Shown in pieces: positions 4,253 to 52,968 of a stretch of 64,000 nt of DNA. Position numbers and translations under genes: made by a program. The notes under the pieces were generated by a model. That model was not told the origin of the DNA. It saw only the letters and a list, made by a program, of their open reading frames with translations, and did no database searches. This DNA is from a virus: IMG/VR virus record IMGVR_UViG_3300010396_000010, positions 1-64,000 of that record; one strand, written 5' to 3'. How positions within the stretch are numbered: position 1 is the stretch's first letter; every line of letters begins with the position of its first letter.

Positions 4253-4266
4253 AAAGAGACAAGGCG

Positions 4267-4506
4267 ATGCAAAAACCAGACAGCGCATTCGTGCGGTGCA
4301 TCTGCTGTGTGCGCGGGTGCTACGGCGACCGCTCGTGCGGTGCAGGGGCATTCACCCGCGACGAAACCAGCGGATGCTTTAACGGCAGAGTGCGCCCAAC
4401 AGGCTATGCACAAAAGAAAAACGCTGCCATCAACCAGCGTGAGTTCAGCGATCTCATTTATCCCAAAGGTGTGACGTGGCAAGGTCGCACGAAGGATCAG
4501 GCATGA
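4267..4506 (+). CDS. hypothetical protein
   Basis: ORF with CxxC; ATGA overlap with the initiator gene. Confidence 0.45.
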   Translation: MQKPDSAFVRCICCVRGCYGDRSCGAGAFTRDETSGCFNGRVRPTGYAQKKNAAINQREFSDLIYPKGVTWQGRTKDQA

Positions 4507-5708: not shown

Positions 5709-6591
5709 GGCGGAAGACGACGCCCTCGATATTGCGCTGGCGCTCTACGATGCGCAACCGCATATGCCCATTGTGCGCGAGGTCCGACACAAACCAGCGG
5801 GCAAGAGTCGCATGCAGATTGCCATCGAGAATGCGCGGGCGACGTATGCCGCTGAGGAAGCACAGCGATTTGAAGCGTATCCCTGCTGCGGAGGTGTGGG
5901 CTACGTGCATGCGGACGTGGACATCCACCATCCCAGGTTCGGGAAACTGGCCCCTTGCCAAGGCGGCAAGTGCAAAGCCTATCAGGCGATCATGGTCGCA
6001 CGCCTAGAAAAGCTGAGCATCGTTCCCCGCGATCTGGTGGCGATGAAAGCGACCTGGGCCACGTTCCCCACTACCATAGATCGCAAGGCACTCACCAACG
6101 TGCGCAACTACGCGACGGCGATCATCAAGGGCAAGCAGGATCGGCGCGGGCTGGTGATGCGCGGCATGAACCAGATCGGCAAAACCGGCATGGCATTCTG
6201 CGTCCATCGGGATTTGCGGGCGGCGACCGTGCCGAGTGTATTTATCCGCACGATTGATTTTCTGGACCGCATGCACGTGGCGCTGATGGACGACGACGAC
6301 AAGACCCGCCATCTGACACTCATGAGCAACTTCGCCAGCGTGACGCACCTCGTGCTGGACGACCTGGGCGCAGAGAAGCCCACAGAGAAGCGCGAGGAAT
6401 GGCTGTACAACCTGCTGGACCAGCGCATGAAAGATCCCGACTGCTGGACGACGATCACCACCAACCTCGAAGGCGACGCCCTGCGCGAGAAGTTGGGCGA
6501 CCGCATCTATTCGCGCATCGCGGGCAGCCGCAGCGACCTATTTCTGATCAAAGTCGAGGGCGAGATGAACGCGCTGAAAGGTGGCGCGTGA
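5596..6591 (+). CDS. DnaC/IstB-like helicase-loader ATPase (start uncertain)
   Basis: Cys motif CCGG...PC; Walker A GMNQIGKT; Walker B LVLDDLG; TTN and RIYSRI motifs. Confidence 0.85.
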   Translation: MEGNMATQRRADLALVKHHAVLTPTRMTATTSSRRATEAEDDALDIALALYDAQPHMPIVREVRHKPAGKSRMQIAIENARATYAAEEAQRFEAYPCCGGVGYVHADVDIHHPRFGKLAPCQGGKCKAYQAIMVARLEKLSIVPRDLVAMKATWATFPTTIDRKALTNVRNYATAIIKGKQDRRGLVMRGMNQIGKTGMAFCVHRDLRAATVPSVFIRTIDFLDRMHVALMDDDDKTRHLTLMSNFASVTHLVLDDLGAEKPTEKREEWLYNLLDQRMKDPDCWTTITTNLEGDALREKLGDRIYSRIAGSRSDLFLIKVEGEMNALKGGA

Positions 6592-7508
6592 TGGCCACTC
6601 TGCCGCGTCATGATAAACCCGCGCCGATCACCGGGCGGTCCAAAGCACCCTTCGCCTACTTCGGCGGGAAGTCTGCCATGATTCACAACCTGCTGCCCCT
6701 GCTGCCGCCGCACGAAGTCTACGTGGACGTGTGCGGTGGATCGGGTGCGTTGCTCTTTGCCAAAGACGCGGCGGAACTGGAAGTGTTCAATGACGCTGAT
6801 TCGGCGCTGGTGAATTTCTTTCGTGTGTTGCGCGACAGACAGCAATGCGCTGATCTGGTGCAACTGCTGGACCTGTCGCCCTTTTCCCGCGAAGACTACC
6901 TGTTTTGTCGCGTCCATTACAACGACAGCGACGACGAGGTTGAGCGGGCGCGGCGCTGGTACATCGCCGCGCAACAAGCGTTCTCCGGTCATTTCGGACG
7001 CAGTGGATGGAAGCAATCGAAGACGATTTCCGGCCACGCGGTGAAATCATTCCGCCACAACGTTGAGCGATTCAGCCAGTTCACGGAACGACTGCACTAT
7101 GTACAGATCGAAAACCTCAGTTTCGAGCGCATCATACGCGACTACGATGCCGAGGATGTGCTGTATTATTGCGACCCGCCCTACCTGCCGGAGACACGCC
7201 GTGACGGGGGCTATCGCCATGAGATGACGGTGGAGCAGCATCGGCAACTGCTCCAGCTCATCACCACCTGCAAGGGGATGGTCATCCTGAGTGGCTATGA
7301 CAATCCACTGTATCGCTCATTCCTTGGCGACTGGCAACTGCATCAGTTTGAAGTCACCGCCCACTCAGCGGCCAAGACCAAAGCCACCGGCCTACAGGGC
7401 AAGGGCGCGATGAAGAATCAGACGCGGGTAGAGTCGATCTGGATTAAACCAAACACGATTAAACCACCAAGCAAACAATTGAGCTTATGGGGGCAGTCAG
7501 ATGAATAG
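6591..7508 (+). CDS. DNA adenine methyltransferase (Dam/D12 class)
   Basis: FAYFGGKS, YVDVCGGSG, EVFND and YCDPPY motifs. Confidence 0.92.
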   Translation: MATLPRHDKPAPITGRSKAPFAYFGGKSAMIHNLLPLLPPHEVYVDVCGGSGALLFAKDAAELEVFNDADSALVNFFRVLRDRQQCADLVQLLDLSPFSREDYLFCRVHYNDSDDEVERARRWYIAAQQAFSGHFGRSGWKQSKTISGHAVKSFRHNVERFSQFTERLHYVQIENLSFERIIRDYDAEDVLYYCDPPYLPETRRDGGYRHEMTVEQHRQLLQLITTCKGMVILSGYDNPLYRSFLGDWQLHQFEVTAHSAAKTKATGLQGKGAMKNQTRVESIWIKPNTIKPPSKQLSLWGQSDE

Positions 7509-8010
7509 TAACGGTTGTACCAGCCATAATAAGTGCCTTCGGGCCAACAAGCGATTTAAGTCCTATATCCAAGTCGATCCTGAAACAGGATGCTGGCTAT
7601 GGACAAAGGGAAAGTCGCGTGATGGCTACGGAGAATTCAATGCTGGAAGGAGGTGGAAAGCACATAGATTTGCGTTCCACATGGCAGGGAATGAACTCAT
7701 TCCAGGATTGACACTAGACCATTTATGTCGCGTTAGGCATTGCGTCAATCCAGATCATTTGGAGCAAGTCGATCTGAGAACGAATATTCTACGCGGAGAG
7801 AACCCAAGCGCGAAAGCAGCACGTGTTATTTGTTGCCCCAAAGGCCATCCTTACGATGAGCAAAATACGAACACCTATCAGGGATACCGTCGCTGCAAGG
7901 CATGTCGGCGGGAACTTGACAAGCGACGGTTGCAAGATCCAGTCTTTCGTAAACAAGTTTCGATTCGCCAAGCGAAATGGTATCAGGCGAAGAAAACAAG
8001 GGCATCATAA
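7501..8010 (+). CDS. HNH homing endonuclease
   Basis: GCWLW..GYG..AHR..LDHLCRVRHCVNPDHL..N, plus C-terminal CPKGH..RRCKAC; AT-richer than its flanks. Confidence 0.9.
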   Translation: MNSNGCTSHNKCLRANKRFKSYIQVDPETGCWLWTKGKSRDGYGEFNAGRRWKAHRFAFHMAGNELIPGLTLDHLCRVRHCVNPDHLEQVDLRTNILRGENPSAKAARVICCPKGHPYDEQNTNTYQGYRRCKACRRELDKRRLQDPVFRKQVSIRQAKWYQAKKTRAS

Positions 8011-8076
8011 AGTGTTTGGATCAAGCCCAACACGATCAAGCAGCCCAAGGAAATCAAGAATCTCACCCTGTGGTGA
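8011..8076 (+). pseudogene. displaced original 3' end of the dam gene
   Basis: Encodes SVWIKPNTIKQPKEIKNLTLW*, a paralogue of the current Dam tail SIWIKPNTIKPPSKQLSLW (7434-7490). Confidence 0.8.
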
Positions 8077-8090
8077 AGAAAGGAACCATC

Positions 8091-8387
8091 ATGCGTAACC
8101 AGAAACCCAAGACGCTGCAAGAACGATTTGAGGAGTTTGACGCGGCGCACCCGGAGATTTATGCCACGTTCAAGCAATACGCGCTGCGAATCCGCATGCG
8201 CCGTATCCATTACTCGGCACGCCTCATTCTCAGTGGCATCAGCTTCAACACGATGCTCGACGGGCGCGACATTGACGAATACAAGATCAACAACGACTTT
8301 TCCAGCAGGTATGCGCGGAAACTGATCAAAGAAGATCCGTTGAACTTCGGGCAGTTCTTCGAGACACGCCGACTGAAAGCCGCATAG
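8091..8387 (+). CDS. phage hypothetical protein
   Basis: AAAGGA RBS; YKINNDFSSRYAR motif seen in phage proteins. Confidence 0.7.
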   Translation: MRNQKPKTLQERFEEFDAAHPEIYATFKQYALRIRMRRIHYSARLILSGISFNTMLDGRDIDEYKINNDFSSRYARKLIKEDPLNFGQFFETRRLKAA

Positions 8388-8399
8388 GAGGGTACGCCA

Positions 8400-9290
8400 A
8401 TGGCCGCGCAACGCGACGACGATCTGTATGAGGATATGCCTGATGATGAGGCGATGCCTGATGCGCAGATGGGTGATGACGTACAAGCGTATCTCTTGGA
8501 AATCGGGCGTTATCCGCTGCTGACCGACGCAGAAGAATTGGCGCTGGCACAGCGCATCGCGCAAGGCGACGCCGATGCTAAGCGGATCTTCATCGAGTGC
8601 AACCTGCGATTGGTGGTCAGCATTGCCAAACGATTTGTGCGTTACACGCACTCGCTGCCGCTGCTCGATCTCATCCAAGAGGGGAACATTGGCCTGATAC
8701 GGGCCGTGGAGAAGTTCGACTGGCGGCGAGGGAATCGGTTCAGCACGCATGCGACGTGGTGGATTCGCCAGGACATTACACGTGGCATCATGAGTAAGGG
8801 GCGTGCCATTCGTCTGCCTGAGCATGTGGCGATAGCCCTGAATCGCCTCAAGCGTCTGCGCAACGCCCTCATGCGTGACACGGGCGTGTTGCCCACCTAC
8901 GAGGAGATCGCCGCCAAGGCGGAGATGCCGACCCGGCGCGTGAGGGAACTGTTCGGATTCGATGATGGCCCCCTGTCGCTCGATGCCGCAGAGTACGGCG
9001 ACGACCACGACACGCCGTTGGCTGACATCCTGCCGGACACCACCAGCGCCGCGCCAGATGCTATCGCCACCTTGGCGGATATTAGCGCATTGGATGATGC
9101 ATTGGAACGGCTCTCGCCCCGCGAACGTGAGGTGTTGCGACTGCGCAAGGGCGTGGTCGATGGGCATGAATGGACGCTGGCCGAGATCGGTCAGAAATTT
9201 GGGCGCACCCGCGAGTGCATCCGCCAGATCGAAACCAGGGCGCTGCGCAAACTCCGCGCACCCGCCATGATGCATGCCCTCGTTGACTAA
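8400..9290 (+). CDS. RpoD-like sigma70 factor lacking region 1.1
   Basis: [11 protein letters not shown] (r1.2), [39 protein letters not shown] (r2), [15 protein letters not shown] (r4). Confidence 0.95.
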
Positions 9291-14372: not shown

Positions 14373-14563
14373 TTCACATCCGCCTATTTCCTGAGTAGAA
14401 TGGTTGTTTTTCTTCACCATCTTACCTACTGATTGACAATCCGTAGAGGATAGCATATGGTGGGTGCATCAACTACGCGCAAGTGTTGGATACGGGCCGC
14501 ACCGTGCCGCTCAGTCGCATTTTCGTGTTGACGGTAATCTTCCGAGGACGTGGAGGAAAAACA

Positions 14564-15469
14564 ATGCAGCAACCATCAGAGCCGATGGACGACGAAGTGA
14601 CACAGATTATTCGGCCCAAAGCGGGAATGCGTTTTGCGGAATTTGTGTTTGATCGCCAGATCGGTGAGGGCGCGGCAAGTGAAGTGTGGTTAGCCCATGA
14701 CTTCTTTGGCGAGCGAGCAGCCATTAAGATTGTGACGCGCAGCGAGGACCGGCAGTTCGAGGATCGTCATTATGCGCGGCGCTTGCTGATTGAGGGGGAA
14801 ACGATGCTGAACCTGCATCACCCCAACATCCTGCATGTAAAGCGTACCGGGATGGATATCCATTGGTACTACATGATCATGGCGTATGTCACAGGCGGGA
14901 CCGTCGCAAGCGCATTGGAGCGCAAGGGGCGCATGCCACTACATCAGGCGCTTGCCGTCACCAACAATGTGCTGCATGCTCTGGAATATGCCCATGCACG
15001 CGGCATCGTCCATCGGGACATCAAGCCGCAGAACATTCTGCTGGACCCGCCAGCAGGGCGCGTGCTGCTGGCGGACTTCGGCATCCTCTACCGCCAGCGT
15101 AAGGCTAGCGACCGCATGACGCTTCCCGGCAAGGTGCTAGGAACTGCCGCGTATATGGCCCCGGAACAGGTACGTGGCCGCGACCTCGATGCCCGCACTG
15201 ATCTCTATGCAGTCGGCTGCATGCTGTACGAAATGCTCTATGGGCAACCGCCATTTGGCAAGAAGTACGGCGACGATCTCGCCATTGCGCGACGCCAGGT
15301 GAGCGAGCCGGTGGTCTTCCCCGCGACGCCGGCCCTGTCGCATCAACTGCAAGCAGTGATCGGGCGCGTACTGGAAAAGGAACCCGCCAAACGCTATCAG
15401 CATGCCGCAGCGTTCCGTCGCGCCCTCGCGCCGTTCTACACGGTGTTCCCACAGAAAGGCGACCGCTGA
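14564..15469 (+). CDS. Hanks-type Ser/Thr protein kinase (soluble)
   Basis: IGEGAASEV, AAIK, HRDIKPQN, DFG, YMAPE and DLYAVG subdomains all intact; GGAGG RBS. Confidence 0.95.
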   Translation: MQQPSEPMDDEVTQIIRPKAGMRFAEFVFDRQIGEGAASEVWLAHDFFGERAAIKIVTRSEDRQFEDRHYARRLLIEGETMLNLHHPNILHVKRTGMDIHWYYMIMAYVTGGTVASALERKGRMPLHQALAVTNNVLHALEYAHARGIVHRDIKPQNILLDPPAGRVLLADFGILYRQRKASDRMTLPGKVLGTAAYMAPEQVRGRDLDARTDLYAVGCMLYEMLYGQPPFGKKYGDDLAIARRQVSEPVVFPATPALSHQLQAVIGRVLEKEPAKRYQHAAAFRRALAPFYTVFPQKGDR

Positions 15470-17508: not shown

Positions 17509-18143
17509 GGACCGAGATTAACGATGTACTCCAGTGCTTCTGCGTTGCCGATCACCTTGTAAGCATGATCGCCGCAATCCCAGCAATCAAAGCGCGCTAG
17601 CCATTTCTTTGTTTTCCATCCTGTGTGCTGCTTGGCTTGATCTCCTGTGAGATCCAGTTTGGGATTGTAGTAAAACAACGTCACTGTGTTATCTGTTGTT
17701 TCTTTACAATCCCAGCAGAAATGCCCTGCCCTTTCTTTGGCAGTCCAAGCATCCCCGTTTTGCAGTAACTTCATGTGTTCTTTCGCACTTGCAAAAGTTT
17801 TTGGCCTTCTTTTCGTGTTTTGTTCCTGCCTATCCAGACGGCCATGCTCAGGAAATAGCAGCCCCAATGCATCTGCATTGGGGAGCATACCTAGATGATA
17901 ATCTTCACTTTCGTTGTAGCGTGCCGCTCCATCAAGTGCATCATCAAGGACGTAGAAAACGCCGTTCATGATACGACCAAGGACACGATCAAAAACGACA
18001 TAGCCGTTACTGATTGGCAATACGGCATGACGCGCCTTTAAGAAGTTTGGTGTACCAGCGTTCTCTTGTGCTGGTTTCCATCCGGTCATCCTTAGTACCG
18101 TCTCTGCTATCTGCAAGGATTTTGAATTGACTTGCTGTGTCAT
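17499..18143 (-). CDS. hypothetical protein with CWDC x2 zinc-finger
   Basis: Two CWDC motifs; low GC; ATGA overlap with the integrase. Confidence 0.6.
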   Translation of the reverse strand: MTQQVNSKSLQIAETVLRMTGWKPAQENAGTPNFLKARHAVLPISNGYVVFDRVLGRIMNGVFYVLDDALDGAARYNESEDYHLGMLPNADALGLLFPEHGRLDRQEQNTKRRPKTFASAKEHMKLLQNGDAWTAKERAGHFCWDCKETTDNTVTLFYYNPKLDLTGDQAKQHTGWKTKKWLARFDCWDCGDHAYKVIGNAEALEYIVNLGPWS

Positions 18144-19486
18144 GCTTCGTTCCCTTCTCTGAGATAAAGTGTTGCCTGGTTTTCGCCCTCTTGCGTCCAC
18201 CGCTGCCAGAAGGTGTGCCAATCCTGCTGCATCAGTGCCGCGACGATGGCGTGGCAGTCAGCCTCAGAATCAGCATAGATGGCGATGGCACGCCTCAGTA
18301 CTTCCCATTGCTTCTCGGTGAGCGAGGGGCAAGAAGCGGCAATGGCGAGGGGCGGCATCTCGCCACTAAGGATCTGCTGCATCACCACTGTTGCCGCCTG
18401 GTGCATGGCGGGCGTCGCGTGCGAGTAGAGGTCGAGCGTGACGGCGATACTACTGTGTCCTAACATCTCGCTCACCAGTTTGGGGTGCATCCCCGCTTCG
18501 AGCAAGAGCGTGGCGGCAGTGTGGCGCATGTCGTGAAAGCGAATCTCCGGTATGCCCGCCCGCTTAATAGCAGGCTTGAAGTACCGGGTGGTTGCGCTTT
18601 CCGGGCCAACGGGCGTTCCTAGCGTCGTCGTGAAGACTAAGCCATGCTCGTTATGCCAGCGGTCGCCCATCGCCTCGGCTTCCTCTTGCTGCCGCTCACA
18701 ATGGCGTTGTAAGGCGTCAATCGCCAACGAGGTCAGACAAACGGTATGCGTGGACGCATGCGTCTTGGGCTGCTTCATCGTGAGCTTGCCCTTGATGCGC
18801 TGCAAGTTGCCCCGCACTTGAATCCATCCCCGTTCCAAATCGACGGTTGACCAGCGTAGACCAAAAAGTTCCCCTTCGCGCATGCCGGTTGAGAGTGCGA
18901 GAACAAACAAGGCTTCGTAACGGTCGCCCTTGATGACATCAAGAAACCGCCGCGCCTCATTGACGCTCCACGTTGTATGTTCCTTGCGGTCCTTGCGGGG
19001 TGCCTCAATCATGTCGGCGGGATTGCGTAGGAGCACGCCCTGCTTTACCGCTGCTTCAAGGGCGATGTGCAGGATGCGGTGAATATGATTCACTGTTGTT
19101 CCTGACAGCCCCTCTTTGAATCGCTGTGCATAGAGCTTTTGCAGATGCGCAGCGGTGAGTTTGCTTGGGGCAATGTCCATCAGTTCTTGGAAGTAGAGGC
19201 GAACACATTTGCGGTAGTTTTCCGCTGTTTTTCCTGGTCGGCTCTGTTCCTTGTTCGCCAGCCATACCTCAAAGAACTGCCGCAACGTGGTGAAGTCGTT
19301 ACCGGGCATCATGCCCCGCTGGTGTTCCGCCTCAGCCAGCAGCGCCTTGATCTTGGCCTGGACGCCAGCGCGTGTGTCATCCCGAACGGTTCTGCGTTTG
19401 CCGTCTGGCATCGACACGCGCCCCATCCAACGCCCATCGGGTTGTTTCGTGTAGGTGCCTTCGTTGTTGCCTCTGCGACCGGCCAT
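18140..19486 (-). CDS. int: tyrosine integrase
   Basis: N-terminal arm-binding GEGT-like motif; TGMREGEL, RFHDMRH, LGHS and LDLYSH catalytic motifs. Confidence 0.95.
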   Translation of the reverse strand: MAGRRGNNEGTYTKQPDGRWMGRVSMPDGKRRTVRDDTRAGVQAKIKALLAEAEHQRGMMPGNDFTTLRQFFEVWLANKEQSRPGKTAENYRKCVRLYFQELMDIAPSKLTAAHLQKLYAQRFKEGLSGTTVNHIHRILHIALEAAVKQGVLLRNPADMIEAPRKDRKEHTTWSVNEARRFLDVIKGDRYEALFVLALSTGMREGELFGLRWSTVDLERGWIQVRGNLQRIKGKLTMKQPKTHASTHTVCLTSLAIDALQRHCERQQEEAEAMGDRWHNEHGLVFTTTLGTPVGPESATTRYFKPAIKRAGIPEIRFHDMRHTAATLLLEAGMHPKLVSEMLGHSSIAVTLDLYSHATPAMHQAATVVMQQILSGEMPPLAIAASCPSLTEKQWEVLRRAIAIYADSEADCHAIVAALMQQDWHTFWQRWTQEGENQATLYLREGNEA

Positions 19487-20909: not shown

Positions 20910-21145
20910 CCCCCAACCGTCGCGCCCTAGTGAGGCAAGGACGCCTTCGCCATGTCGAGTAGACTCATTGTCCATCGTGATCCAGAATCGTGCCTACAGC
21001 GCGTTACACGACTGCCCGTCCGTGTGCTGTGTAGGCAATATGCAGGAATTACCCCAAAACGCTGTTGACAGTAGCCAACGAAAAGTGGTAAGATGTGTCT
21101 AAGAAACATTAGTAATCTTTGCATAAACGGCGCGAAAGGAGGCTA

Positions 21146-22123
21146 GTGGTGGATAGTGAACTGACAACTCATTCGCTTGATGACATGATCGAGCAATGGG
21201 TTAGGGCAAAGTTCCAAATAACCAAAAGCGAAAGAACGGCAAAGGCATATATCGAAACACTGATACGGTTTCGCTCTTGGCTGCAACGCCATGATCTTGA
21301 TTTGGATAGTCCAGCACAAGTTATTGTGCCAAAGGCTCTTGAATGGCTAGCGCAGTCACGGCATCCAAGTAAGAAGGAAGTTACCGCAGGTACATTCAAT
21401 CAGCGTCGAGCCATTCTTTCCAGTTTCTACACCTACGCCATTCGTCAAGGCTACGCCATTGAAGTGAATCCAATGCTGCGCATCGATCCCATGCGTGGTG
21501 CTGCCCGTCGAGGAACGCAAGGTGTTTCAATTGAAACCGTCAGGCAAAATCTTCTTGCCATCAATCAGTCAACATTGGTGGGTTTGCGTGACTTTGCCCT
21601 TATAGAATTTGCAGCTATGACGGGCAAACGCGCACATGAGTTGATCGCACTCAACTTGGGCGATCTTCACGTTCAAAATGACGGCGTTCTCATTGCATGG
21701 GAAACACTGAAAGGTGGAGATAAGCAGGAGCGGTTATATGAGTACCCGCACGCGGCTAACCTCCTGCGCTATCTCATGGTACAGTATGGCCCCGAATGGC
21801 CCTCGCTCCCGAAGGGTACTCCGGTTTGGTCGTCACAATCCTTCAATACAGGAAAAGACGGCAAGCGCCTAACTCGCAATGGGTTGGCGTATATCTACGA
21901 ACGCCGCATTGGAACGACGAAGGTTCATGACACGCGCCGCATATTCGCACAAACAGCGTTTCGTGTGGGCGCATCAGCACCACAGGTTCAGCAGCTTATG
22001 GGGCATCGCACTCTTGCGGCAACACAACGCTATGCAGAGGCAGAACAAACAGCCATCAACCCATTTGCTAACAAAATGGGAAAATTGCTCGGCTTAACTG
22101 CCGACGAACAGAAAGAGGATTAG
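21146..22123 (+). CDS. second tyrosine recombinase (XerC/D-like)
   Basis: RDFAL..TGKRAHEL, KGG, HDTRR, MGH and TQRY catalytic set; no arm domain; own TTGACA-18-TAAGAT promoter. Confidence 0.9.
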   Translation: MVDSELTTHSLDDMIEQWVRAKFQITKSERTAKAYIETLIRFRSWLQRHDLDLDSPAQVIVPKALEWLAQSRHPSKKEVTAGTFNQRRAILSSFYTYAIRQGYAIEVNPMLRIDPMRGAARRGTQGVSIETVRQNLLAINQSTLVGLRDFALIEFAAMTGKRAHELIALNLGDLHVQNDGVLIAWETLKGGDKQERLYEYPHAANLLRYLMVQYGPEWPSLPKGTPVWSSQSFNTGKDGKRLTRNGLAYIYERRIGTTKVHDTRRIFAQTAFRVGASAPQVQQLMGHRTLAATQRYAEAEQTAINPFANKMGKLLGLTADEQKED

Positions 22124-23292: not shown

Positions 23293-23297
23293 ACACA

Positions 23298-23337
23298 AAA
23301 GCGGAGGGCGGGATCAGGTGATCCCGCCCTCCGCTTT
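23298..23337. terminator. bidirectional terminator
   Basis: 19-bp perfect inverted repeat AAAGCGGAGGGCGGGATCA / TGATCCCGCCCTCCGCTTT. Confidence 0.85.
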
Positions 23338-23453
23338 GCCGAGGCTCCAACACACCCCACCTGCGCATGGTGGTTGCCTCTGCCGTGTGTCGGCGGCGCT
23401 GGCGCACCACACCTAGCTTATGCGATGCTCAACCGATGGGTGAATGGTACCGG

Positions 23454-23527
23454 CGGGGCCAGTCGGACTTGCACCTACTCTATCACTCGTGGAAAAGCGA
23501 CGTGCTACTCTTACACTATCTAGCCCC
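23454..23527 (-). tRNA. atypical tRNA-like RNA (Gly-TCC-like)
   Basis: GGGGCTA(G)/(C)TGGCCCC acceptor, GTGT/GCAC D-stem, TCGCT/AGTGA anticodon stem with 8-nt loop TTTCCACG, T-loop TGCAAGT; no CCA. Confidence 0.55.
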
Positions 23528-23683
23528 ATGTATGCCCCAGGCGCTATGTACTCCCCTTCGCTGGCTTGTCACTATTCGCTAGTGCAACAACCGGTAGTCG
23601 CGTTCGGACTGCATGCCGGTCCTCGGAGAGCCGTTCGTCATCACCAGAAGGGCATACGTTCCAGTGATGCAGTAGGCACTTCC

Positions 23684-23712
23684 ATCATAGCATATCGCCT
23701 ACATGTTGTCAA
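23684..23712 (-). promoter_or_regulatory. sigma70 promoter driving the non-coding unit
   Basis: TTGACA-17-TATGAT on the minus strand, with TG extension. Confidence 0.75.
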
Positions 23713-23723
23713 CAACCTACACG

Positions 23724-23771
23724 AAAACGCCCACCCGCTCAACGTCTGCGCAGACCGGAGCGGATGGGCGT
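23724..23771 (-). terminator. terminator of the late morphogenesis operon
   Basis: Minus-strand ACGCCCATCCGCTC...GAGCGGGTGGGCGT hairpin followed by TTT. Confidence 0.65.
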
Positions 23772-23862
23772 CTATCACAAGATGCAGCGGGAGACAAAAC
23801 CTACTGCACGTGTTCAGTGTCGCATAGACCAGCGCGTGCGTCAAGCGCCATAGACAGAATGC

Positions 23863-46253: not shown

Positions 46254-47768
46254 CTACCAGTTCGCGGTGTGGAATACGCGGGTATCCTGATGGTCTTTCA
46301 CCAACGCTAGCCGTTTTTCCAGACTGAGGAACGCCGCGCGTCCCGCCATCGCCGTGATCGCGTCACCCACGCCGTCAGCCTGATCATCATGCCGACCATT
46401 GGGAATTTGAATCAGTTCGGTTTCATAGTCATAGATCCAGGGAGCGCCACGCCGATGGTAGACGGACTTTGCCCGATAGTGCGCCGCCGTTGTTGCCTGG
46501 CGACTCTCTTTATCCCCATGCCGCTCTAGTTCGATGATGGGCAGTCCTAACCGCCGCGCATACTGGATGAGGGTAAGCTGGTAGGCGACCTTCTCAATGC
46601 CCACCGCGTAAGGATGCCATCGCGTATATGCTGTGTTGATCTCGTCCGGTTGTTCAGGACCAGGGAGTTTCTTGCGAACGATATCCACCACGAAGAAGCG
46701 GCCTTGGTGTGAGGCCACCGTCGCAATGACGAAATAGTCCGCCTTGGTCTTGACACTTGCCGCAGGGTCCACCGCCTGAAACCAGCGACAGGCACGGAAA
46801 CTGACCGTCTCCTCAACGCCACTACTGTTCGTGAAGGTGATGCATTCGCGCTGCTCATCGACTTCGGCATACTGGAACCACTCCCGCTTGAAGGTGTTGC
46901 CTTCTTCGCTGCCGGGGTTGCCCTGGTAGAGACAGAGGAAATCAATGGGGTCCAGATCCTTCCGAATCTCGCGCAGCGCGTCAATGCCCCACACATCCGG
47001 CCAGTAGGATTCTTCGTTATCCGCCTCGCCCGTAATGGCGGGGAACGTCACGAGGTCAAATCCCATCTTTGCTAGTCGCGGCACCGCATCATCATAGTGC
47101 CAGCGGTTGCAGACAAAGATGATGCGCCCACCGGGTTTGAGGCGACTCTTGATCACGGTCATAAAACGCCGGATAAACCGCGCCCGCCACGTCGGACTCT
47201 CAATCTCGTTCGGGTCAAACGGGTCGTCCAGAATAATCAGGTCGGCGCGACGCCCAAGAGCGCCACCCATGAAGCCCATGCTGGAATACTGCGGGTCTTT
47301 CGCGCCCTGGTGACTCCACCCATCCTTGTCAACTATCGGCCATTTGCCGCTATGATCCCGCCACTTGAAGTACAAGCCCCGACTGGACCAGCCACGTTCT
47401 TTGTCCGGCATCACATCAGGAAAGATTTCCTCATGCCGCCCGTTTTGCTCATACACCTGCTGCAACGCCGTCAAGTAGGCGACAGCTTTATCATCGTTGG
47501 CGTGCAGGTGTAGCACAATCCAGTCAGGGTGATTGCCAATAATCCACGCTGGGGCGATCTCCGAGATCCACGTGCTTTTGCCGCTGCCGGGTGGACATAC
47601 CACCACCGATCCCTTATTCCACTCCCTTGGCGCGACGGCATTGATAATGCCCTGATGGTGTGGCGCTGGTCGCAGCCCACGTGTCAGGACGCCATAGATG
47701 GCAAGAGATTCCCTCCCCCGGAGGATTTCGAGGGGTTTGAGTGCAGTGGGATCATCCATGTATTTCAC
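46254..47768 (-). CDS. terL: terminase large subunit
   Basis: PPGSGKS, GRRADLIILDDP, RWHYDD, YQGNP, AVDPA and HDDQAD motifs. Confidence 0.95.
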   Translation of the reverse strand: MKYMDDPTALKPLEILRGRESLAIYGVLTRGLRPAPHHQGIINAVAPREWNKGSVVVCPPGSGKSTWISEIAPAWIIGNHPDWIVLHLHANDDKAVAYLTALQQVYEQNGRHEEIFPDVMPDKERGWSSRGLYFKWRDHSGKWPIVDKDGWSHQGAKDPQYSSMGFMGGALGRRADLIILDDPFDPNEIESPTWRARFIRRFMTVIKSRLKPGGRIIFVCNRWHYDDAVPRLAKMGFDLVTFPAITGEADNEESYWPDVWGIDALREIRKDLDPIDFLCLYQGNPGSEEGNTFKREWFQYAEVDEQRECITFTNSSGVEETVSFRACRWFQAVDPAASVKTKADYFVIATVASHQGRFFVVDIVRKKLPGPEQPDEINTAYTRWHPYAVGIEKVAYQLTLIQYARRLGLPIIELERHGDKESRQATTAAHYRAKSVYHRRGAPWIYDYETELIQIPNGRHDDQADGVGDAITAMAGRAAFLSLEKRLALVKDHQDTRVFHTANW

Positions 47769-47994: not shown

Positions 47995-48213
47995 TTACGC
48001 CTCTTTCGGCGCTTCCCGCTTATTTGCTCGGATAATCAAGGTCTTTGGTAGTCCTCTCGCTGTCAATAGTTCGCGCAATTCATCATACGAAAACACTCTC
48101 GCCCCTTCGGGAATGGTGCATATCTCGCAGAGTGGCGATGGCATCATAAAACCACCACGGATATCATGTGCAACCATATCCGCAATCGCCTCTTGATATT
48201 CATCATTCGTCAT
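47995..48213 (-). CDS. hypothetical protein
   Basis: Coupled ORF. Confidence 0.5.
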   Translation of the reverse strand: MTNDEYQEAIADMVAHDIRGGFMMPSPLCEICTIPEGARVFSYDELRELLTARGLPKTLIIRANKREAPKEA

Positions 48214-48512
48214 GGCTTCTCATTCCTGGCTATAGCCGCATTCGCCCACATGACCGCTTCTTCCAATGCTGTCAACGCCAAACTCCGCTCTCGTGACTCC
48301 GGGGCCAGTTCGAGAAAGAGTAGCGCCAACGCTTTCCCCGCATCCCGTAGTTGCCCATACCGCACCACCTGCGTTCCCTGTGGTGCATGATAGGTGAAGT
48401 TATGGATCACCCGATCCCGATTAACGGGCGTCACCTTTGACTTCTTGGCTGCCACTGGCTTTCCCTTTAGTTGTGTTGCAGGGATGAATAACTCTTTGTC
48501 GTCACTAGCCAT
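48210..48512 (-). CDS. Acb2/Tad1-like cyclic-nucleotide sponge candidate
   Basis: NFTYHAP..RY..LR..APESRERSLALTALEEAVMWANAAIARNE hairpin motif. Confidence 0.65.
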   Translation of the reverse strand: MASDDKELFIPATQLKGKPVAAKKSKVTPVNRDRVIHNFTYHAPQGTQVVRYGQLRDAGKALALLFLELAPESRERSLALTALEEAVMWANAAIARNEKP

Positions 48513-48515
48513 TGC

Positions 48516-48851
48516 TTATTCCTCACCCATCATGGCACGAAACACGATCTCATATTGGCGCGTGAACTCTCGGTCCGCCTCGCGCATCACGTTATAGATC
48601 CGTCCTGCTTCTTCCCGCCAGTGCTGCTGCATCTGCCGCTCGGCCTCATCACCGAAATCATCATGCAATCCTGCTACGATGCGCTCTATTTCCCGTAGCG
48701 TCTCTTCACTTATCACTGCCTGCCCCTTCGTCTGCTCCAATGAAATTTCTTTGTAGAATTTAGCGCGGTGCTTAGCCTTATCCACCGCGCCCCTTGTGCA
48801 ATCATCGGCCCCTATGCAGTTACACAGCCGCCCCTCGGTGACACGTGACAC
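48516..48851 (-). CDS. hypothetical protein
   Basis: ORF upstream in the same operon. Confidence 0.5.
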   Translation of the reverse strand: MSRVTEGRLCNCIGADDCTRGAVDKAKHRAKFYKEISLEQTKGQAVISEETLREIERIVAGLHDDFGDEAERQMQQHWREEAGRIYNVMREADREFTRQYEIVFRAMMGEE

Positions 48852-49026
48852 GGCGCATGCTGCGGCGAAGACATCTTATCAGCGATGGGCGACGGCACCA
48901 CATGACGGCGCTCACAGCGCGTCACGGCATGCACCTCGCAGGTATGGCGTCTATACGCGCATGCGCCTACGCACACACGGATATCGAACGGTAGGCGCAT
49001 AATGGATATGACTATTGGCAGTATAT

Positions 49027-49055
49027 TTGACATGGATACTCAGATGTGTGATACT
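49027..49055 (+). promoter_or_regulatory. sigma70 promoter of the inverted early cassette
   Basis: TTGACA-17-GATACT. Confidence 0.7.
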
Positions 49056-49059
49056 GAAT

Positions 49060-49368
49060 CAACAACTGAATACCACCTGATGAGCGAAGGGGACACGCGG
49101 GACCACGAACACCGTTACCAAGACTGGTCCATCTTGGTTACTTGAACAATTGAATCAGCAGAGACGTATTAGAGCGGACCTATCCGATCTTATGAGTAGC
49201 GTGCAGTGTGAATGCATGCCGAGATCTCAGAGTAGGGGGACGATCCTCAACCTGTGAGAGCCGGGACTCTGATATGCATAGCGGCAAGCAAAACCAGTGT
49301 TTGGTAGGACTCATAATCCTGCCTGTGCAGATGCGACTTCTGCGCTTGTCGCCCGGCTCAGATGAGCC
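49060..49368 (+). ncRNA. structured leader RNA of unknown family
   Basis: Nested stems TTATGAGT/ACTCATAA, ATGCAT/ATGCAT, TCAGAGT/ACTCTGA; hairpin ACCAAGA/TCTTGGT; boxA-like AACAA(C/T)TGAAT twice. Confidence 0.45.
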
Positions 49369-49398
49369 TATCACAAGAAAAGAAACGAGACAACGACC

Positions 49399-49569
49399 AT
49401 GTCAAAGGAACAACTGCTCAAGATCATTGCTCATGCACAAGCACAAATCGATGAGATGGAAGCAGAGGAATCACTGTACGAGTATGAGTACCGCGAAGAG
49501 CGCGCTTTGGATATGCGTATGGAAGCATACGCCTATTATAGCGGACTCAATGACGACTACGATTATTAG
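49399..49569 (+). CDS. 56-aa acidic, Tyr-rich protein (not in the ORF track)
   Basis: MSKEQLLKIIAHAQAQIDEMEAEESLYEYEYREERALDMRMEAYAYYSGLNDDYDY; preceded by the conserved leader. Confidence 0.7.
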   Translation: MSKEQLLKIIAHAQAQIDEMEAEESLYEYEYREERALDMRMEAYAYYSGLNDDYDY

Positions 49570-49633
49570 GCCGAAACCTAGGGGACTATACATCCCTGAT
49601 GGTCTGCTGGTTATGCCAGCACTGAGGATGGCC
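49569..49633 (+). ncRNA. type II hammerhead ribozyme
   Basis: GGCC-GAAA-CC...GG-TC (cleavage after 49604)-TGCTGG/CCAGCA-CTGAGGA-T-GGCC: all core nucleotides and stems I-III present. Confidence 0.8.
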
Positions 49634-49679
49634 GCTCTCACTGAGAGCTAGTATCGCAAGAAAAAAAAAGAGACAAACC

Positions 49680-49943
49680 ATGAACGTCTATCAGCAGACC
49701 TTGTACGACCGTGCAGCAGATGGCACTTTCCAACCCAGCGTAACGGAATCCGGTGTCGCCTGTCAGTCGTGCGTACAAGACTGGATCAATGGCAGCAGTC
49801 AACAGCGTCGGCAAGATGATGGATCGCTCGTCTTGGTTGAGTGGCATCATTACAATCTGATCTCCATCATCATCATCAACCAGCCAAACCAATACCTTGA
49901 CGCATGCGAGACGTTGCACACTGCATCATGCGTGTGCTGCTAA
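49680..49943 (+). CDS. small early protein
   Basis: Preceded by the conserved leader; CQSC and CETLH motifs. Confidence 0.6.
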   Translation: MNVYQQTLYDRAADGTFQPSVTESGVACQSCVQDWINGSSQQRRQDDGSLVLVEWHHYNLISIIIINQPNQYLDACETLHTASCVCC

Positions 49944-49982
49944 GACAGCACACATCACAAGAAAGAAAAGAGACAAACCACC

Positions 49983-50192
49983 ATGAAAACCATCATGCTG
50001 CTGATCGTATCCATCATCCTGTTGTGCGCCATTGGCACCGCACACATGCACACAGCAACCTACCCCAGCAACGTGTGTGCCAGCAATCAGCACATTGCCT
50101 CGTATGCACAGCCAACCACCGTGCGGGTACTGGTGCCAGGCAGCACCGATCCCCAAGTGGTCGATATCCAGCAGTGCGTAGCCAACCACTAG
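49983..50192 (+). CDS. small secreted/membrane peptide
   Basis: Signal-like MKTIMLLIVSIILLCAIG; conserved leader. Confidence 0.6.
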   Translation: MKTIMLLIVSIILLCAIGTAHMHTATYPSNVCASNQHIASYAQPTTVRVLVPGSTDPQVVDIQQCVANH

Positions 50193-50289
50193 CCATAGCG
50201 CATGCCGGTACAGCCGTAGCCTTCGATGGCAGCATGCGTACCGATCCTCAGAGCGAGGATCTATCACAAGAGAAACGAGACAAGAAACA

Positions 50290-50580
50290 ATGATGCAAGC
50301 AAACAAGGCGTACCACTTCATCACGAGCGCGGGCGAAATGGGCATATACAGTACCCGCAATCGTAACACGGCCATCATCCATGCCATCGTGCGCGATACT
50401 ACCGCATATGACGATCTGGCTCGGTATGCATCGAGCGATTATCCAGTTTTCGCTCGCTGCGTGCGGGGGTACATCAACGATTTCCACGAGTCGCTATCCC
50501 CGATCTTGTATCAGCTTGCAACGATCCCCAATCTCTGCTGGCTGTATGACATGCTCCGGCAGATGGCCGATATCGGATAG
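50290..50580 (+). CDS. small early protein
   Basis: Conserved leader; last ORF of the cassette. Confidence 0.6.
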   Translation: MMQANKAYHFITSAGEMGIYSTRNRNTAIIHAIVRDTTAYDDLARYASSDYPVFARCVRGYINDFHESLSPILYQLATIPNLCWLYDMLRQMADIG

Positions 50581-50588
50581 GGTGAGGA

Positions 50589-50648
50589 TGGGGGATATAC
50601 TTCTCTAGAGAGGATATATATATCCTCTCTAGAGAAGTATATCCCCCA
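50589..50648. repeat. perfect 60-bp palindrome with no spacer
   Basis: TGGGGGATATACTTCTCTAGAGAGGATATA|TATATCCTCTCTAGAGAAGTATATCCCCCA. Confidence 0.95.
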
Positions 50649-50741
50649 GATCTGCCGCATTGCAAGGCAATGCGAAAGTTTCACCACGAACTGCATAACA
50701 TTGCATGAGAGTACCGCAAAAACACCGCACAATGCGGAACA

Positions 50742-51251
50742 TTATGCCTCATCATCGGATGGCGTGATCTGGCGTGGTGCTTCACTGCGAGACTGGATGA
50801 TCTGCGCGTCGATCATGGCGATCTGATCGTCACTGATGATCCCGGCGCGTTGTGCTTCGGCGAGGATGTGGACGTGCAGGTGTTGCTGTGGCTGTGGTGG
50901 TGTCTGGTCCTGGGGACGTTGCTTGGCATAGGACTCAGGATGGCGGCGCTCTAAGAGCCACGCTGCGGCTTTCCAATCGGTGTCGGCTGCGGCTGTGACT
51001 TTGACCAGTAGGGCATGAGCGCCAAGGGCTTGCGCACGTTGGAGAGACGCAACTAATGCAACATATGGTTGCTCTCCTGACTCACCTTTCCGTAGCCATT
51101 GCCGTAGCGTCTCATGCGAGATACCGCAAGCCTCAGCAGCAAGGTGGTACGTCATGCCGTCAGCAATGAGCGCGACCAGTTGCACCATGAGGCTATCGGT
51201 GAGTTTGGTAGGTCGCCCTCCAGCGTAGCGCGTGATATCGCTCTCACTCAT
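50742..51251 (-). CDS. terS: terminase small subunit-like HTH protein
   Basis: GGRPTKLT..AAEACGISHETLRQWL..DWKAAAWLLERRHPESY. Confidence 0.75.
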   Translation of the reverse strand: MSESDITRYAGGRPTKLTDSLMVQLVALIADGMTYHLAAEACGISHETLRQWLRKGESGEQPYVALVASLQRAQALGAHALLVKVTAAADTDWKAAAWLLERRHPESYAKQRPQDQTPPQPQQHLHVHILAEAQRAGIISDDQIAMIDAQIIQSRSEAPRQITPSDDEA

Positions 51252-51335
51252 GGTACTATCCTTTTGACTAATACTTGACATGAGTAGCAGGATATGCGAG
51301 AATGAAGTATCACAAGTGAATCGAGACAAGAGACA

Positions 51336-51977
51336 ATGCAAGTTACTGTTACCGTGCAAGTGCCTGACAAGCACCGCACACGTGTTCGTCTGTTGCGCAT
51401 GCAGGTGCGACCCGGCGCAGTGGCGCTAGGGAAGGCGCACAGCCGGGCATTGCCAGCAACGCAAGAGATGCCGGTTATCGCGTCACCACTGGACGATCCT
51501 AATTTCATGGGCGGAGTGATGGCGTTACTGTATACGCCAGATCCCACACCCGGTCCCAAGCCACGTAAGGCATCGTGTGATATTGATGCGAAGCTCCTGG
51601 TTGAACTGTGCGATTTCCGTGAGACAGCGCAACGCAACGCCGATCAAGAGCAACAATTTGCCCAGGATCGCGCCGATGAACGCAGCACAGAAAACAAACT
51701 TCGGCAACGTCACGGCAAGGAATTGATTCCCGCTGATCCGGAAATGGAGCAAGAATCGGCTGGTAAGATTGCCGGATACTTGCTCGTTGCGGATGCGATG
51801 CAAGAAGTTATCACGGCATGTAAACGCGGTTTCGATGATTATCTCGCATGCTTACCAGCGCAAGTGGAATATCTAGAAAGCAACATGACCAATCAGAACG
51901 ACCCTTTTAGCAGCATGCGCGACAAAATTATTGCCGCCGAAGTCTCTGAAATCACGCGCCGATGGATGGGGGAATAA
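51336..51977 (+). CDS. hypothetical protein
   Basis: Follows the promoter at 51275 and a TATCACAAG leader. Confidence 0.6.
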   Translation: MQVTVTVQVPDKHRTRVRLLRMQVRPGAVALGKAHSRALPATQEMPVIASPLDDPNFMGGVMALLYTPDPTPGPKPRKASCDIDAKLLVELCDFRETAQRNADQEQQFAQDRADERSTENKLRQRHGKELIPADPEMEQESAGKIAGYLLVADAMQEVITACKRGFDDYLACLPAQVEYLESNMTNQNDPFSSMRDKIIAAEVSEITRRWMGE

Positions 51978-51981
51978 GACG

Positions 51982-52968
51982 ATGGCAACGCCAGTTACCT
52001 ACGATCTCCGTGTTGTCGATATCGCCCTTGTGGATGACAACCCGTTTCAGCCGCGCAAGAGTTACGACGAAAAGTATATCTCTGAATTAGGTGCTTCATT
52101 CCGAGAAGAAGCAGCAGCACAAGGGCAAGACGATCCCGGCTATGGCGTGAAACAACCGCCTCCGGCCCGCGAAGTCGATGGTCGTTACCAGTTGGCAGCG
52201 GGCCACTGCCGGAAGCGCGGTGTGCTGAAAGCAGATGGTAAAGTGTTCCGGCTGATTGTTGAGGATCTCTCCGATGCCGATATGCGCCGTATCGCTATGA
52301 TTGAAAACATGCAGCGTCAGGACATGAGCCATTCCGATACCGCAACCGGCATTATGGATTATCTCAGAAGTCAAGGCTGGAAAAAGGGTGGTATTGAACC
52401 AACAAATGAACGCGCCATCAAAAAGACGGCTAAGGATCTTGGCAAGCCATGCAGTGAGATTCGCGATTATATCGCGTTCTCTGCCTTGCCAGGCATGGTG
52501 CAAGGCATGGTCGATGCCGGACATCTCTCATTCCGACTGGTGGGCGATCTGGCAAAACTGCCGTTCGCTCAGAGAATGAAAACCTTGCGCATGATCACCA
52601 CTGGCGGTAAAACAGTGGCAGAAGCAGAAGTTTTGATTAAAGCGGCGATCAAGGAAATGGACCGGCAAGAGCAGATGCAACGCTTGGGCATGGCGGGCGA
52701 TCAAGGCGCACTATTCGATGTGCCTGAGACGACGCCAGAGACGCGCCAGGCACAGGCAAAGTATGCCGCCGATATGCAGATGGTCGCAACCATCCTTGCC
52801 AAGTATGGCGATGCTGAGGGGGATGCGCTCACAGCCGCCATGCCGCTCTTAAACTTAGACATCGAACGGGAACGCATCAGGATTATCATTGCCACCGCGA
52901 AGCGGATGGACAGCACGCTCATGGCCGCGCAGTCACAACGCGATATCGCAACCATCATGGGAAAGTGA
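51982..52968 (+). CDS. ParB/Spo0J-like protein
   Basis: NPFQPRK, YQLAAGHCRKR and IENMQRQDM motifs, followed by an HTH. Confidence 0.85.
   Translation: MATPVTYDLRVVDIALVDDNPFQPRKSYDEKYISELGASFREEAAAQGQDDPGYGVKQPPPAREVDGRYQLAAGHCRKRGVLKADGKVFRLIVEDLSDADMRRIAMIENMQRQDMSHSDTATGIMDYLRSQGWKKGGIEPTNERAIKKTAKDLGKPCSEIRDYIAFSALPGMVQGMVDAGHLSFRLVGDLAKLPFAQRMKTLRMITTGGKTVAEAEVLIKAAIKEMDRQEQMQRLGMAGDQGALFDVPETTPETRQAQAKYAADMQMVATILAKYGDAEGDALTAAMPLLNLDIERERIRIIIATAKRMDSTLMAAQSQRDIATIMGK

Follow-up and report, generated by a model that had tools for sequence, protein, structure and literature searches.

In Cluster K mycobacteriophages, non-structural genes are preceded by start-associated sequences (SAS; PMC3203893). 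These are asymmetric 13-bp repeats, GGGATAGGAGCCC, with an AGGAG core, which occur in 11-19 copies in one orientation and are located 3-7 bp before mostly ATG start codons. Different phages carry different gene families behind them and the repeat is nearly absent from the host. Upstream of about half of the SAS are extended start-associated sequences (ESAS), i.e. 17-bp imperfect inverted repeats of conserved sequence. Because variants in the ESAS arms do not compensate each other the authors favoured DNA binding (PMC3203893). SAS have been known since 2011, and as late as 2025 what they do was described as unverified (PMC3203893, PMC12699233). Here we analysed a stretch of 64,000 nucleotides of viral DNA (IMG/VR record IMGVR_UViG_3300010396_000010, positions 1 to 64,000; termed the window) in which a leader of two short boxes, frequently behind a hairpin, stands in front of small genes. 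Four such genes form an inverted cassette at 49027-50648 between the genes for the large and the small terminase, terL and terS.

Other described elements have to be considered as well. Lambdoid morons are independent units of a promoter, one or several genes and a terminator, which are situated between late genes. Stem-loops at the 5' terminus serve as mRNA stabilisers. The leader itself was noticed in an initial annotation of the window, which was made from the letters only and knew of no named element of this kind. SAS and ESAS are comparable, and this statement can no longer be upheld (PMC3203893). In T4-type phages promoter early stem-loops (PeSLs) consist of an AT-rich tract, a sigma-70-type promoter, a stem-loop, a ribosome site and an ATG in front of small orphan open reading frames (ORFans); their recombination and the formation of mini-circles are reported as experimentally shown (PMC2839356). 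By analogy, SAS/ESAS are the closest described likeness, a positional one, and PeSLs are near in function too.

Results

The window constitutes the first 64 kb of a phage genome of 72,349 bp with 56% G+C and a terminal overlap, which IMG/VR classifies as complete with direct terminal repeats. The composite motif, ATC(A/G)CAAG followed by 6-10 mostly purine bases and GAGACAA, was found seven times in these 72,349 bp, always on the + strand (starts, counted from ATC, at 4241, 23774, 49370, 49653, 49954, 50263 and 51309). Counted from the preceding base, the cassette copies of (T/C)ATC(A/G)CAAG start at 49369, 49652, 49953 and 50262, the three others at 4240, 23773 and 51308. Taken singly, the boxes were about twice as frequent as in shuffled sequences (ATCRCAAG, 11 versus 5.6 expected; GAGACAA, 13 versus 6.6). 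The non-randomness lies in the combination of the two. A profile built from 11 leaders recovered just these seven places in the genome (nhmmer, E-values from 8e-5 to 1.1), and the next match had E = 10; the motif is discrete and has no degenerate copies. In an independent repeat search five local copies came up as the top direct-repeat family.

Six of the seven copies are followed by an ATG at a distance of 0-6 nt from the last GAGACAA; only at 23774 is it missing. Counted manually, the distances from the first box to the ATG are 26, 29, 27, 29, 27 and 27 nt in the six window copies. The distance is near-constant, although the distance from box to box varies from 14 to 17 nt. No copy precedes a structural gene. 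The architecture and the extra copies at 51308, 4241 and 23773 had been proposed in the initial annotation and were retrieved here, seven places with six before an ATG. Genome-wide, GAGACAA is present 13 times on the + strand and not at all on the - strand, and some of the sites are antisense to virion genes. AGACAA is the most strand-biased 6-mer of the genome (27:3); when the leader copies were removed its bias was within extreme-value expectation.

Next to five of the seven copies a hairpin ends 0-4 nt before the motif (49355-49368, 49634-49648, 49932-49953, 50243-50261 and 23729-23769). The copies at 4241 and 51309 are devoid of a hairpin. The four cassette hairpins had energies between -7.0 and -11.9 kcal/mol. 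For the hairpin 23729-23769 the 45 nt upstream of 23774, in which it is contained, were folded as a whole and gave -25.5 kcal/mol. As a background, a hairpin of -7 kcal/mol or better at the same placement was found in 13.7% of 1500 random positions. The arms are 5-12 bp long and have unrelated sequences. Thus, as had been claimed, the sequence of the hairpin varies while its structure and position are kept. The leader hairpins were dismissed as intrinsic terminators: UAUCACAAGA... follows, a U run is missing and a terminator scan lists none of them. A hammerhead ribozyme, which the initial annotation had placed in one spacer, was not recovered. Across the window, none of the Rfam families passed its gathering threshold, and at E <= 10 the region 48800-51500 yielded nine weak matches (seven microRNA models on the palindrome at 50589-50648, one small RNA model, one small nucleolar RNA model) without a hammerhead.

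In a promoter scan 49027 and 51275 were the two best sites, each with 10/12 agreement with the consensus. The cassette promoter (49027-49055, + strand; TTGACA, 17 nt, TG-GATACT) is predicted to be of the sigma-70 type; as supposed initially, no further promoter-like site was detected within the cassette. The other promoter (TTGACA, 17 nt, GAGAAT) and its leader, 51309-51335, occupy 51275-51335 on the + strand; a hairpin is absent and GAGACAA is present twice. Here the predicted transcript start is the first base of the leader motif. Therefore, the free leader would be about 27 nt long, equal to the length from hairpin to ATG in the cassette. The promoters at 2109, 49027, 51275, 60448 and 64989 (all +) have common flanks, (AC)TAATA(G/C) before TTGACATGA and GATATG before the -10 region. 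They probably represent one co-regulated class.

Only one close relative was identified. It is a fragmentary phage on four small contigs, a terL contig and three more, all in a Ktedonobacterales metagenome-assembled genome (G001), and its terL is 73% identical. It has five leaders in which (N)CACAAG is followed by one to three GAGAC(A/G) boxes and, 0-6 nt further on, by an ATG (five of five). Four of these are positioned about 20-30 nt downstream of a TTGACA-17-TAnnnT promoter, after a small hairpin which begins near the predicted start. The likeness among these four units extends over about 100 nt, from the promoter through the hairpin to the leader. The fifth copy resembles that at 4241. Its boxes form part of the preceding gene, at the 3' end of a coding sequence whose stop codon overlaps the next ATG, and it has no hairpin. 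Because four copies of the relative are downstream of sigma-70-type promoters, the element appears to be a transcribed leader in the 5' untranslated region (UTR) and not a promoter. The core common to both phages is short, CACAAG and GAGACAA, and the spacers differ. As the boxes were kept between phages in which the shared leader-bearing ortholog is 44% identical, they are, by this comparison, under selection. Taken as sequence, the leader is real, discrete and conserved in this lineage. In the relative (L144) we further noticed TTTTGTCTG, common to the four promoter units just upstream of the -35 region, with a position of about 40-50 nt upstream of TTGACA given. On the opposite strand TTTTGTCTG reads as an AGACAAA-type box; TTTGTCT has 0 matches in the window phage.

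With the leader downstream of promoters, it is hardly tenable that the motif is itself a promoter for the phage's own sigma factor, such that each cassette gene would be transcribed separately. The phage does code for a protein of the sigma-70 family (8400-9290, + strand, 296 aa; Sigma70_r2 match, E 1e-20), and TATCAC is faintly reminiscent of a -10 region. However, this sigma factor is RpoD-like and consensus-type promoters are abundant in the genome, and it is downstream of such promoters that the motif of the relative is found. In addition, a -35/-10 pair would need a longer and more constant distance than the boxes have, and GAGACAA as a -10 region would start the transcript at or beyond the ATG. 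A family search for single-subunit RNA polymerases had no match; since it was silent in every control genome it shows nothing.

The hairpins and the predicted start at 51275 bear on a second possibility, namely that hairpin and first box are an RNA processing or stability signal with an endonuclease cut just 3' of the hairpin. This would create uniform 5' ends of the cistrons which match the primary transcript from 51275, and the hairpin would protect the 3' end of the upstream fragment. The short gap of 0-4 nt between hairpin and motif in five of the seven window copies is compatible with this. The same is true for the predicted start on the first motif base: both routes would end up with a 5' UTR of about 27 nt. 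Moreover, a polycistron with a single promoter needs a means of setting the yield of each cistron. Nevertheless, we consider processing rather improbable. The stems have 5-8 bp, which is too short for RNase III, and no consensus for cleavage can be made out in the bases at the junction. In the relative the hairpin is at the 5' end of a monocistronic transcript where its removal has no obvious use, and the copies at 4241 and in L146 have no hairpin to be cut at. An ACA-specific nuclease was rejected as the ORFs are not depleted of ACA (12-29 per kb versus 13.5 genome-wide).

The genes behind the leaders were compared between the two phages. After an HNH-like gene (70% identical) the window phage has a 79-aa Cys-rich ORF and the relative a C5 DNA methyltransferase-like gene, so labelled from reading its sequence by eye. 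Between terS and terL four ORFs with one promoter correspond to a single 103-aa ORF with its own promoter. From terS to a 213-aa gene there is nothing in the window phage and an extra 101-aa ORF with a leader in the relative; after ParB only the relative has a leader-bearing gene, an ORF of about 360 aa. The 213-aa gene carries a leader in both and is, at 44% identity, the sole shared leader-bearing ortholog. The initial annotation had regarded a fixed gene content in relatives as evidence against its proposals; with one orthologous slot among those compared the content is not fixed. Leaderless genes in the terS-terL gap are rearranged between the phages too, including a gene for an Acb2/Tad1-domain protein present only in the window phage. 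The terS-terL region thus seems variable in general.

A further possibility is that the leaders, in the relative together with promoters, are chiefly recombination linkers for gain, loss and swap of accessory ORFs in the manner of PeSLs. Agreeing with this are the different cargo at the compared slots (methyltransferase-like gene versus 79-aa ORF, 103-aa ORF versus four ORFs), the extra leader-bearing genes of the relative (101 and about 360 aa) which are absent here next to one orthologous slot, and the orphan leader without a gene at 23774. Furthermore, the leader-bearing ORFs are ORFans, and the units of the relative are alike over about 100 nt as in PeSLs. Yet the identity between copies is restricted to 8 + 7 nt with differing spacers, far under the usual needs of homologous recombination. 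This argues for selection on a signal rather than recent copying. The leaderless genes of the terS-terL gap are rearranged as well, the contigs of the source run (contigs only) show neither joints nor alternative forms, and any early or accessory region is expected to vary in cargo. Altogether we regard a predominant role in recombination as quite unlikely.

How might such leaders be translated? Pairing with the anti-Shine-Dalgarno (anti-SD) sequence was calculated with 16S tails from five genomes of the Ktedonobacteria class, all of which end in the canonical tail. The six leaders had duplex energies of -2.9 to -6.9 kcal/mol; for comparison, 33 other phage genes with an ATG had a mean of -9.0 and random 25-mers a mean of -5.2. 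The other phage genes have AGGAG or GGAGG at the usual distance, whereas none of the leaders contains GGAGG, a peculiarity which the initial annotation had recorded correctly. An SD site in the leader was discarded because its pairing with the 16S tail is at the random level. Neither did other parts of the 16S rRNA pair conspicuously. In the 16S genes of the five class genomes the boxes had no exact complement, duplexes of whole leaders with 16S rRNA were no better than those of shuffles (-15.1 versus -17.1 kcal/mol), and the -7.0 kcal/mol of the first box was equalled or beaten by 57% of shuffles. The mean unpaired probability from -25 to +6 was 0.61 for the leaders and 0.43 for the 33 other genes (Mann-Whitney p = 0.006). 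Translation without SD sequences on locally unstructured mRNA is described in PMC3121790. The site just before the AUG, the near-constant leader length and the openness are common to all contexts in which the leader was found. The initial annotation had offered a choice between RNA-level signals and recombination junctions. The former has gained ground by the location downstream of promoters in the relative, the near-fixed distance to the ATG in both phages, the poor SD and the unpaired state, and the latter is the alternative called quite unlikely above.

We therefore favour, with about as much doubt as confidence, the view that the element is a leader for translation initiation which is specific to this lineage and poor in SD pairing, has a hairpin that would insulate or stabilise, and is mounted on portable accessory-gene units. 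A unit would have three parts: a boundary, which may be a stable hairpin of arbitrary sequence, the 5' end of the transcript or a gene upstream that is being translated; an A-rich, unpaired RNA stretch of about 27 nt with the boxes (AU)CACAAG and GAGACAA; and the AUG. The hairpin would bound and insulate this landing pad and shield it against 5' decay. The open leader would recruit the 30S subunit with little or no SD pairing, and the conserved boxes may contribute added specificity. The hairpin is assigned to the unit and not to the preceding gene because no cistron precedes it in unit 1 of the cassette and in four copies of the relative. Being self-contained, the unit would be portable. In the relative it would travel with its own promoter before single accessory genes; in the window phage a single promoter would serve four units in series, and the whole would be a multi-gene moron placed between terS and terL. 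The leader-bearing genes look like a chosen non-structural, mostly accessory subset. Copies, placement, conservation, poor SD pairing, openness and variable cargo were directly observed; from these we infer every functional step.

Several points weigh against this view. Openness and A-richness do not account for the conservation of two specific boxes, which therefore implies a sequence-specific reader, and the boxes were not significantly complementary to 16S rRNA. Since a start codon is missing at 23774, this copy at least is not a translation signal. The leader of the gene at 51336 had a low openness of 0.33, because the fold included upstream sequence which is not transcribed. Translation, 5' ends and stability of the leader units are all deduced from sequence, the comparison rests on two genomes, one of them fragmentary, and the host assignment on a metagenomic bin. 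The unexplained conservation of the boxes keeps a regulator, cleavage at the junction and recombination alive as rivals, and these are not mutually exclusive with one another.

A regulator would explain the boxes as the operator of a dedicated trans-acting factor, either an RNA-binding translational regulator or a DNA-binding protein at oriented intergenic sites. Precedents are T4 RegA, an RNA-binding protein which regulates early mRNAs as a set, and the stoperators of Cluster A mycobacteriophages, asymmetric sites of defined orientation to which the repressor of the phage binds. The conservation of the box sequence exceeds the needs of openness, all copies are asymmetric and in a single orientation, which like the intergenic placement would fit stoperators, and one copy (51309) is at a promoter start. 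In a temperate phage control of the prophage state is plausible. Also, the copy at 23774 persists without a gene and the motif is discrete without degenerate copies. On the other hand, the variable box spacing, 14-17 nt here and larger in the relative, is awkward for one rigid DNA-binding protein, the core shared by both phages is as short as CACAAG and GAGACAA, and a DNA operator needs no fixed distance to an ATG. A candidate for the binding protein was not identified; the search for the RegA family, which had no match, was silent in every control genome too and carries no weight. On balance we hold a regulator to be a possible but unlikely explanation. The contrast of SAS with stoperators has been drawn before (PMC3203893).

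The leader was searched for in other phages and in the presumed host group. A blastn search of a phage collection with 48000-52000 had no match and the best tblastn matches of terL were below 30% identity. In IMG/VR, terL, a terL alignment and a portal alignment retrieved only relatives of <=38% identity, and among metagenome contigs with a terL none exceeded 32%. In 80 loci of distant relatives (886 kb; viral, metagenome and class-genome sequences) there was no leader match at E <= 10. A pattern scan of IMG/VR had single-copy matches only, among the matches listed. In full texts of the literature (without supplementary files) no phage paper on both boxes and no described phage of the Ktedonobacter group was among the matches listed.

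In 169 genomes of the Ktedonobacteria class, which include the unpublished G123 with one match, the exact pattern had 81 matches, four of them in G001, compared to 38 for a reversed control; this is about 0.5 per genome. The 77 matches outside of G001 are distributed over 168 genomes, with more than two only in G142 (four) and G138 (three). The phage has five such exact matches in 72 kb. Identical sequences recurred in related genomes (G142, G143 and G144; G135, G137 and G138) and therefore look like orthologous host sites. With the leader model, 151 class genomes were searched. Multiple significant matches were confined to G001, and five other single matches had E-values of 0.04-0.1. As judged from these genomes, the leader thus does not appear to be a habit of the presumed host group. 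A host-type context of ribosome binding, which the initial annotation had named as the reading that would do away with its proposals, is at odds with this clustering in G001.

The cassette is on the + strand and is flanked by terminase genes on the - strand, both identified: terL (46254-47768) by tblastn matches to annotated large terminases and terS (50742-51254) by PHROG 4102 (E 3e-26). The inverted position described initially is correct. The promoter is followed by an untranslated stretch of about 290 nt (49062-49354) in which no ORF has a positive coding score. Unit 1 (49355-49398) comprises the hairpin 49355-49368, TATCACAAG, a purine run, GAGACAA, 5 nt and the ATG of ORF1 (49399-49569), a very acidic protein of 56 aa with no Pfam or PHROG match and a coding score of +0.56 bits per codon. 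Unit 2 (49634-49679) has the hairpin 49634-49648, 4 nt, ATCGCAAG, A9, GAGACAA, 3 nt and the ATG of ORF2 (49680-49943), 87 aa, Cys-rich, with no family match and a weak coding score of +0.05. The ORF2 stop codon is located in the loop of the next hairpin. In unit 3 (49932-49982) an 8-bp hairpin, 49932-49953, is directly followed by ATCACAAG, a purine run, GAGACAA, 6 nt and the ATG of ORF3 (49983-50192; 69 aa, no family match), which by eye has a hydrophobic N-terminus. Unit 4 (50243-50289) consists of a 7-bp hairpin, 50243-50261, 1 nt, ATCACAAG, GAGACAA, 6 nt and the ATG of ORF4 (50290-50580), 96 aa, with no family match and no usable match in the protein Atlas. Its leader is 90% identical over 31 nt to the copy at 51308. 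None of the four ORFs had a match in Pfam or PHROGs. Codon-usage scores of the leader-fronted ORFs were +0.05 to +0.56 bits per codon and those of every overlapping alternative ORF were negative. By these scores the ORFs behind the leaders are coding frames.

Between the convergent cassette and terS is a perfect palindrome of 60 nt with 30-nt arms and an AT-rich centre (50589-50648), presumably a bidirectional terminator. The contigs of the probable source run break exactly there. With its own promoter and the palindrome at its end the block 49027-50648 has, by analogy, the layout of a multi-gene moron. The 'host-takeover' transcript of the initial annotation is not supported: the phage is temperate and carries an integrase, and the layout is that of a moron. 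The window has just two exact copies of AACAAYTGAA, 49061-49070 and 49145-49154 (+), and both are in the untranslated stretch or at its 5' end. In five class genomes the same sequence, or a 9/10 variant, belongs to a conserved block which precedes the 16S gene by 115-206 nt. As a mere lead, the pair may be an antitermination signal similar to rrn boxA; a 17-column matrix and an nhmmer profile of the 16S-upstream block did not single out the sites of the window. Two other assignments for the leader sites were rejected. Copies flank terS, yet the tight coupling to ATG codons and the copies at 4241 and 23774 speak against a pac site. Integron attC arrays have promoterless ORFs between structured sites with a conserved core and inverse core, near an integron integrase; here, the hairpins are without conserved arms and tyrosine recombinases are 27-31 kb away.

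Outside of the cassette, the leader at 51309 belongs to the 213-aa gene (51336-51977, +). This gene has no assigned function and is upstream of a ParB-like gene; the protein Atlas gave only a 0.76 feature match to a hypothetical cluster. The leader at 4240-4266 (+), without a hairpin, overlaps the stop codon of the HNH-like gene (3857-4252) and is followed by the 79-aa Cys-rich ORF (4267-4506, +), whose stop overlaps the in-frame ATG (4503) of a replication-initiator ORF. The orphan leader (23729-23797, +) consists of a 41-nt hairpin, 4 nt, ATCACAAG and GAGACAA and has no start codon. Because of better pairing and a T run on the - strand the hairpin 23729-23769 is likely the terminator of the late operon, and the copy at 23774 beside it fits best with a remnant of a lost unit. 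The surrounding 570 nt or so (23293-23862) have no convincing ORF. Apart from the orphan leader and the terminator of the late operon, a strong bidirectional terminator (23299-23338) is located there. On the - strand a TTGACA-17-TATGAT promoter at 23712 predicts a transcript of about 340 nt without a clear ORF. The region could be a non-coding RNA or an attachment region.

A tyrosine integrase (18140-19486, -) and a second recombinase (21119-22123, +) are encoded, and on account of the integrase the phage is classed as temperate. The block of virion genes, on the - strand, begins at about 48.9 kb and reaches to 23.9 kb. On this late strand, adjoining the cassette, is the gene for the 100-aa Acb2/Tad1 hairpin domain protein (48210-48512, -; Pfam PF24729, E 2e-20; PHROG 1454), likely a sponge for anti-phage signalling nucleotides; the relative has no such gene at this place. 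The left arm contains a serine/threonine kinase-like gene (14483-15469, +; PHROG 2361, E 5e-47) and a DNA methyltransferase (6399-7508, +; PHROG 56, E 3e-60). An antisense ORF of 430 aa without a family match (7983-9275) overlaps the sigma factor gene and misled the length-based gene map. tRNA genes were not found. The phage is known only from a soil metagenome and its host was inferred only from the metagenomic bin; an attB search for host assignment found only another contig of the relative phage. The stretch is contained in one DNA sequencing run, its probable source, and no RNA run was listed.

Discussion

How does the leader compare with the described systems? Like SAS it is an asymmetric multi-copy repeat with all seven copies on one strand and six of them 0-6 nt before an ATG, in front of non-structural genes. 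In both cases the cargo family varies by phage, geneless copies occur occasionally and the genomes are those of temperate, siphovirus-type phages. Inverted repeats precede about half of the SAS, and a hairpin is present at five of the seven copies here. The differences are equally clear. SAS have one box which contains AGGAG; here ATCACAAG and GAGACAA are combined at variable spacing without an SD core. The sequence of the ESAS arms is conserved, whereas the arms of 5-12 bp here have no common sequence and structure and position are kept. There are seven copies as opposed to 11-19, and the phage lineage and the presumed host phylum are unrelated. By its unrelated sequence, the absence of an AGGAG core, the two boxes and the structural conservation of the hairpin the leader is set apart from the SAS and is not a member of them.

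With PeSLs the leader has in common an adjacent stable stem-loop, ORFans in variable regions and a cargo which differs between relatives (two genomes in our case). A subclass of PeSLs has the stem-loop just downstream of the -10 region, as do the four units of the relative (PMC2839356). A unit promoter is, however, present only in four of the five units of the relative and at 51275; it is absent in units 2-4 of the cassette and at 4241. PeSLs end in a normal SD sequence, and their stem-loops are terminators, often with G and C tracts. They are from lytic myoviruses, while the phage here is temperate, and the evidence for recombination belongs to PeSLs.

The cassette resembles a moron by its position between terS and terL, on the opposite strand and beside the Acb2/Tad1-domain gene. 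A common leader sequence is not described for morons, and here four cistrons are present. A likeness to stabilising 5' stem-loops and to SD-independent initiation can be seen in the hairpin of the relative at or near the predicted 5' end and in the A-rich, unpaired, SD-less start region. In those cases no conserved boxes are needed; here two are conserved. We consider the leader, by analogy, as a variant of start-associated or regulatory-cassette elements which is not without precedent.

What is the significance of such a leader? It is a second, unrelated instance of a start-associated element, in another phage lineage and probably another host phylum. This suggests that private leaders in front of accessory genes have arisen repeatedly in the evolution of phages. 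Because the leader is free of an SD sequence it separates the question of start association from SD pairing, a confounder in the mycobacteriophage case. In addition, slots for accessory and anti-defence genes can be found by a motif instead of by homology. A bolder and in our opinion improbable version is a phage-private initiation code without SD, read by a dedicated factor of phage or host, by which the accessory genes would be addressed as one set, with the unit doubling as a portable adaptor for captured ORFs. If this were true, newly captured ORFs would be expressed at once via the adaptor, and start-associated sequences would be a general, independently evolved strategy of phages and not a peculiarity of Cluster K.

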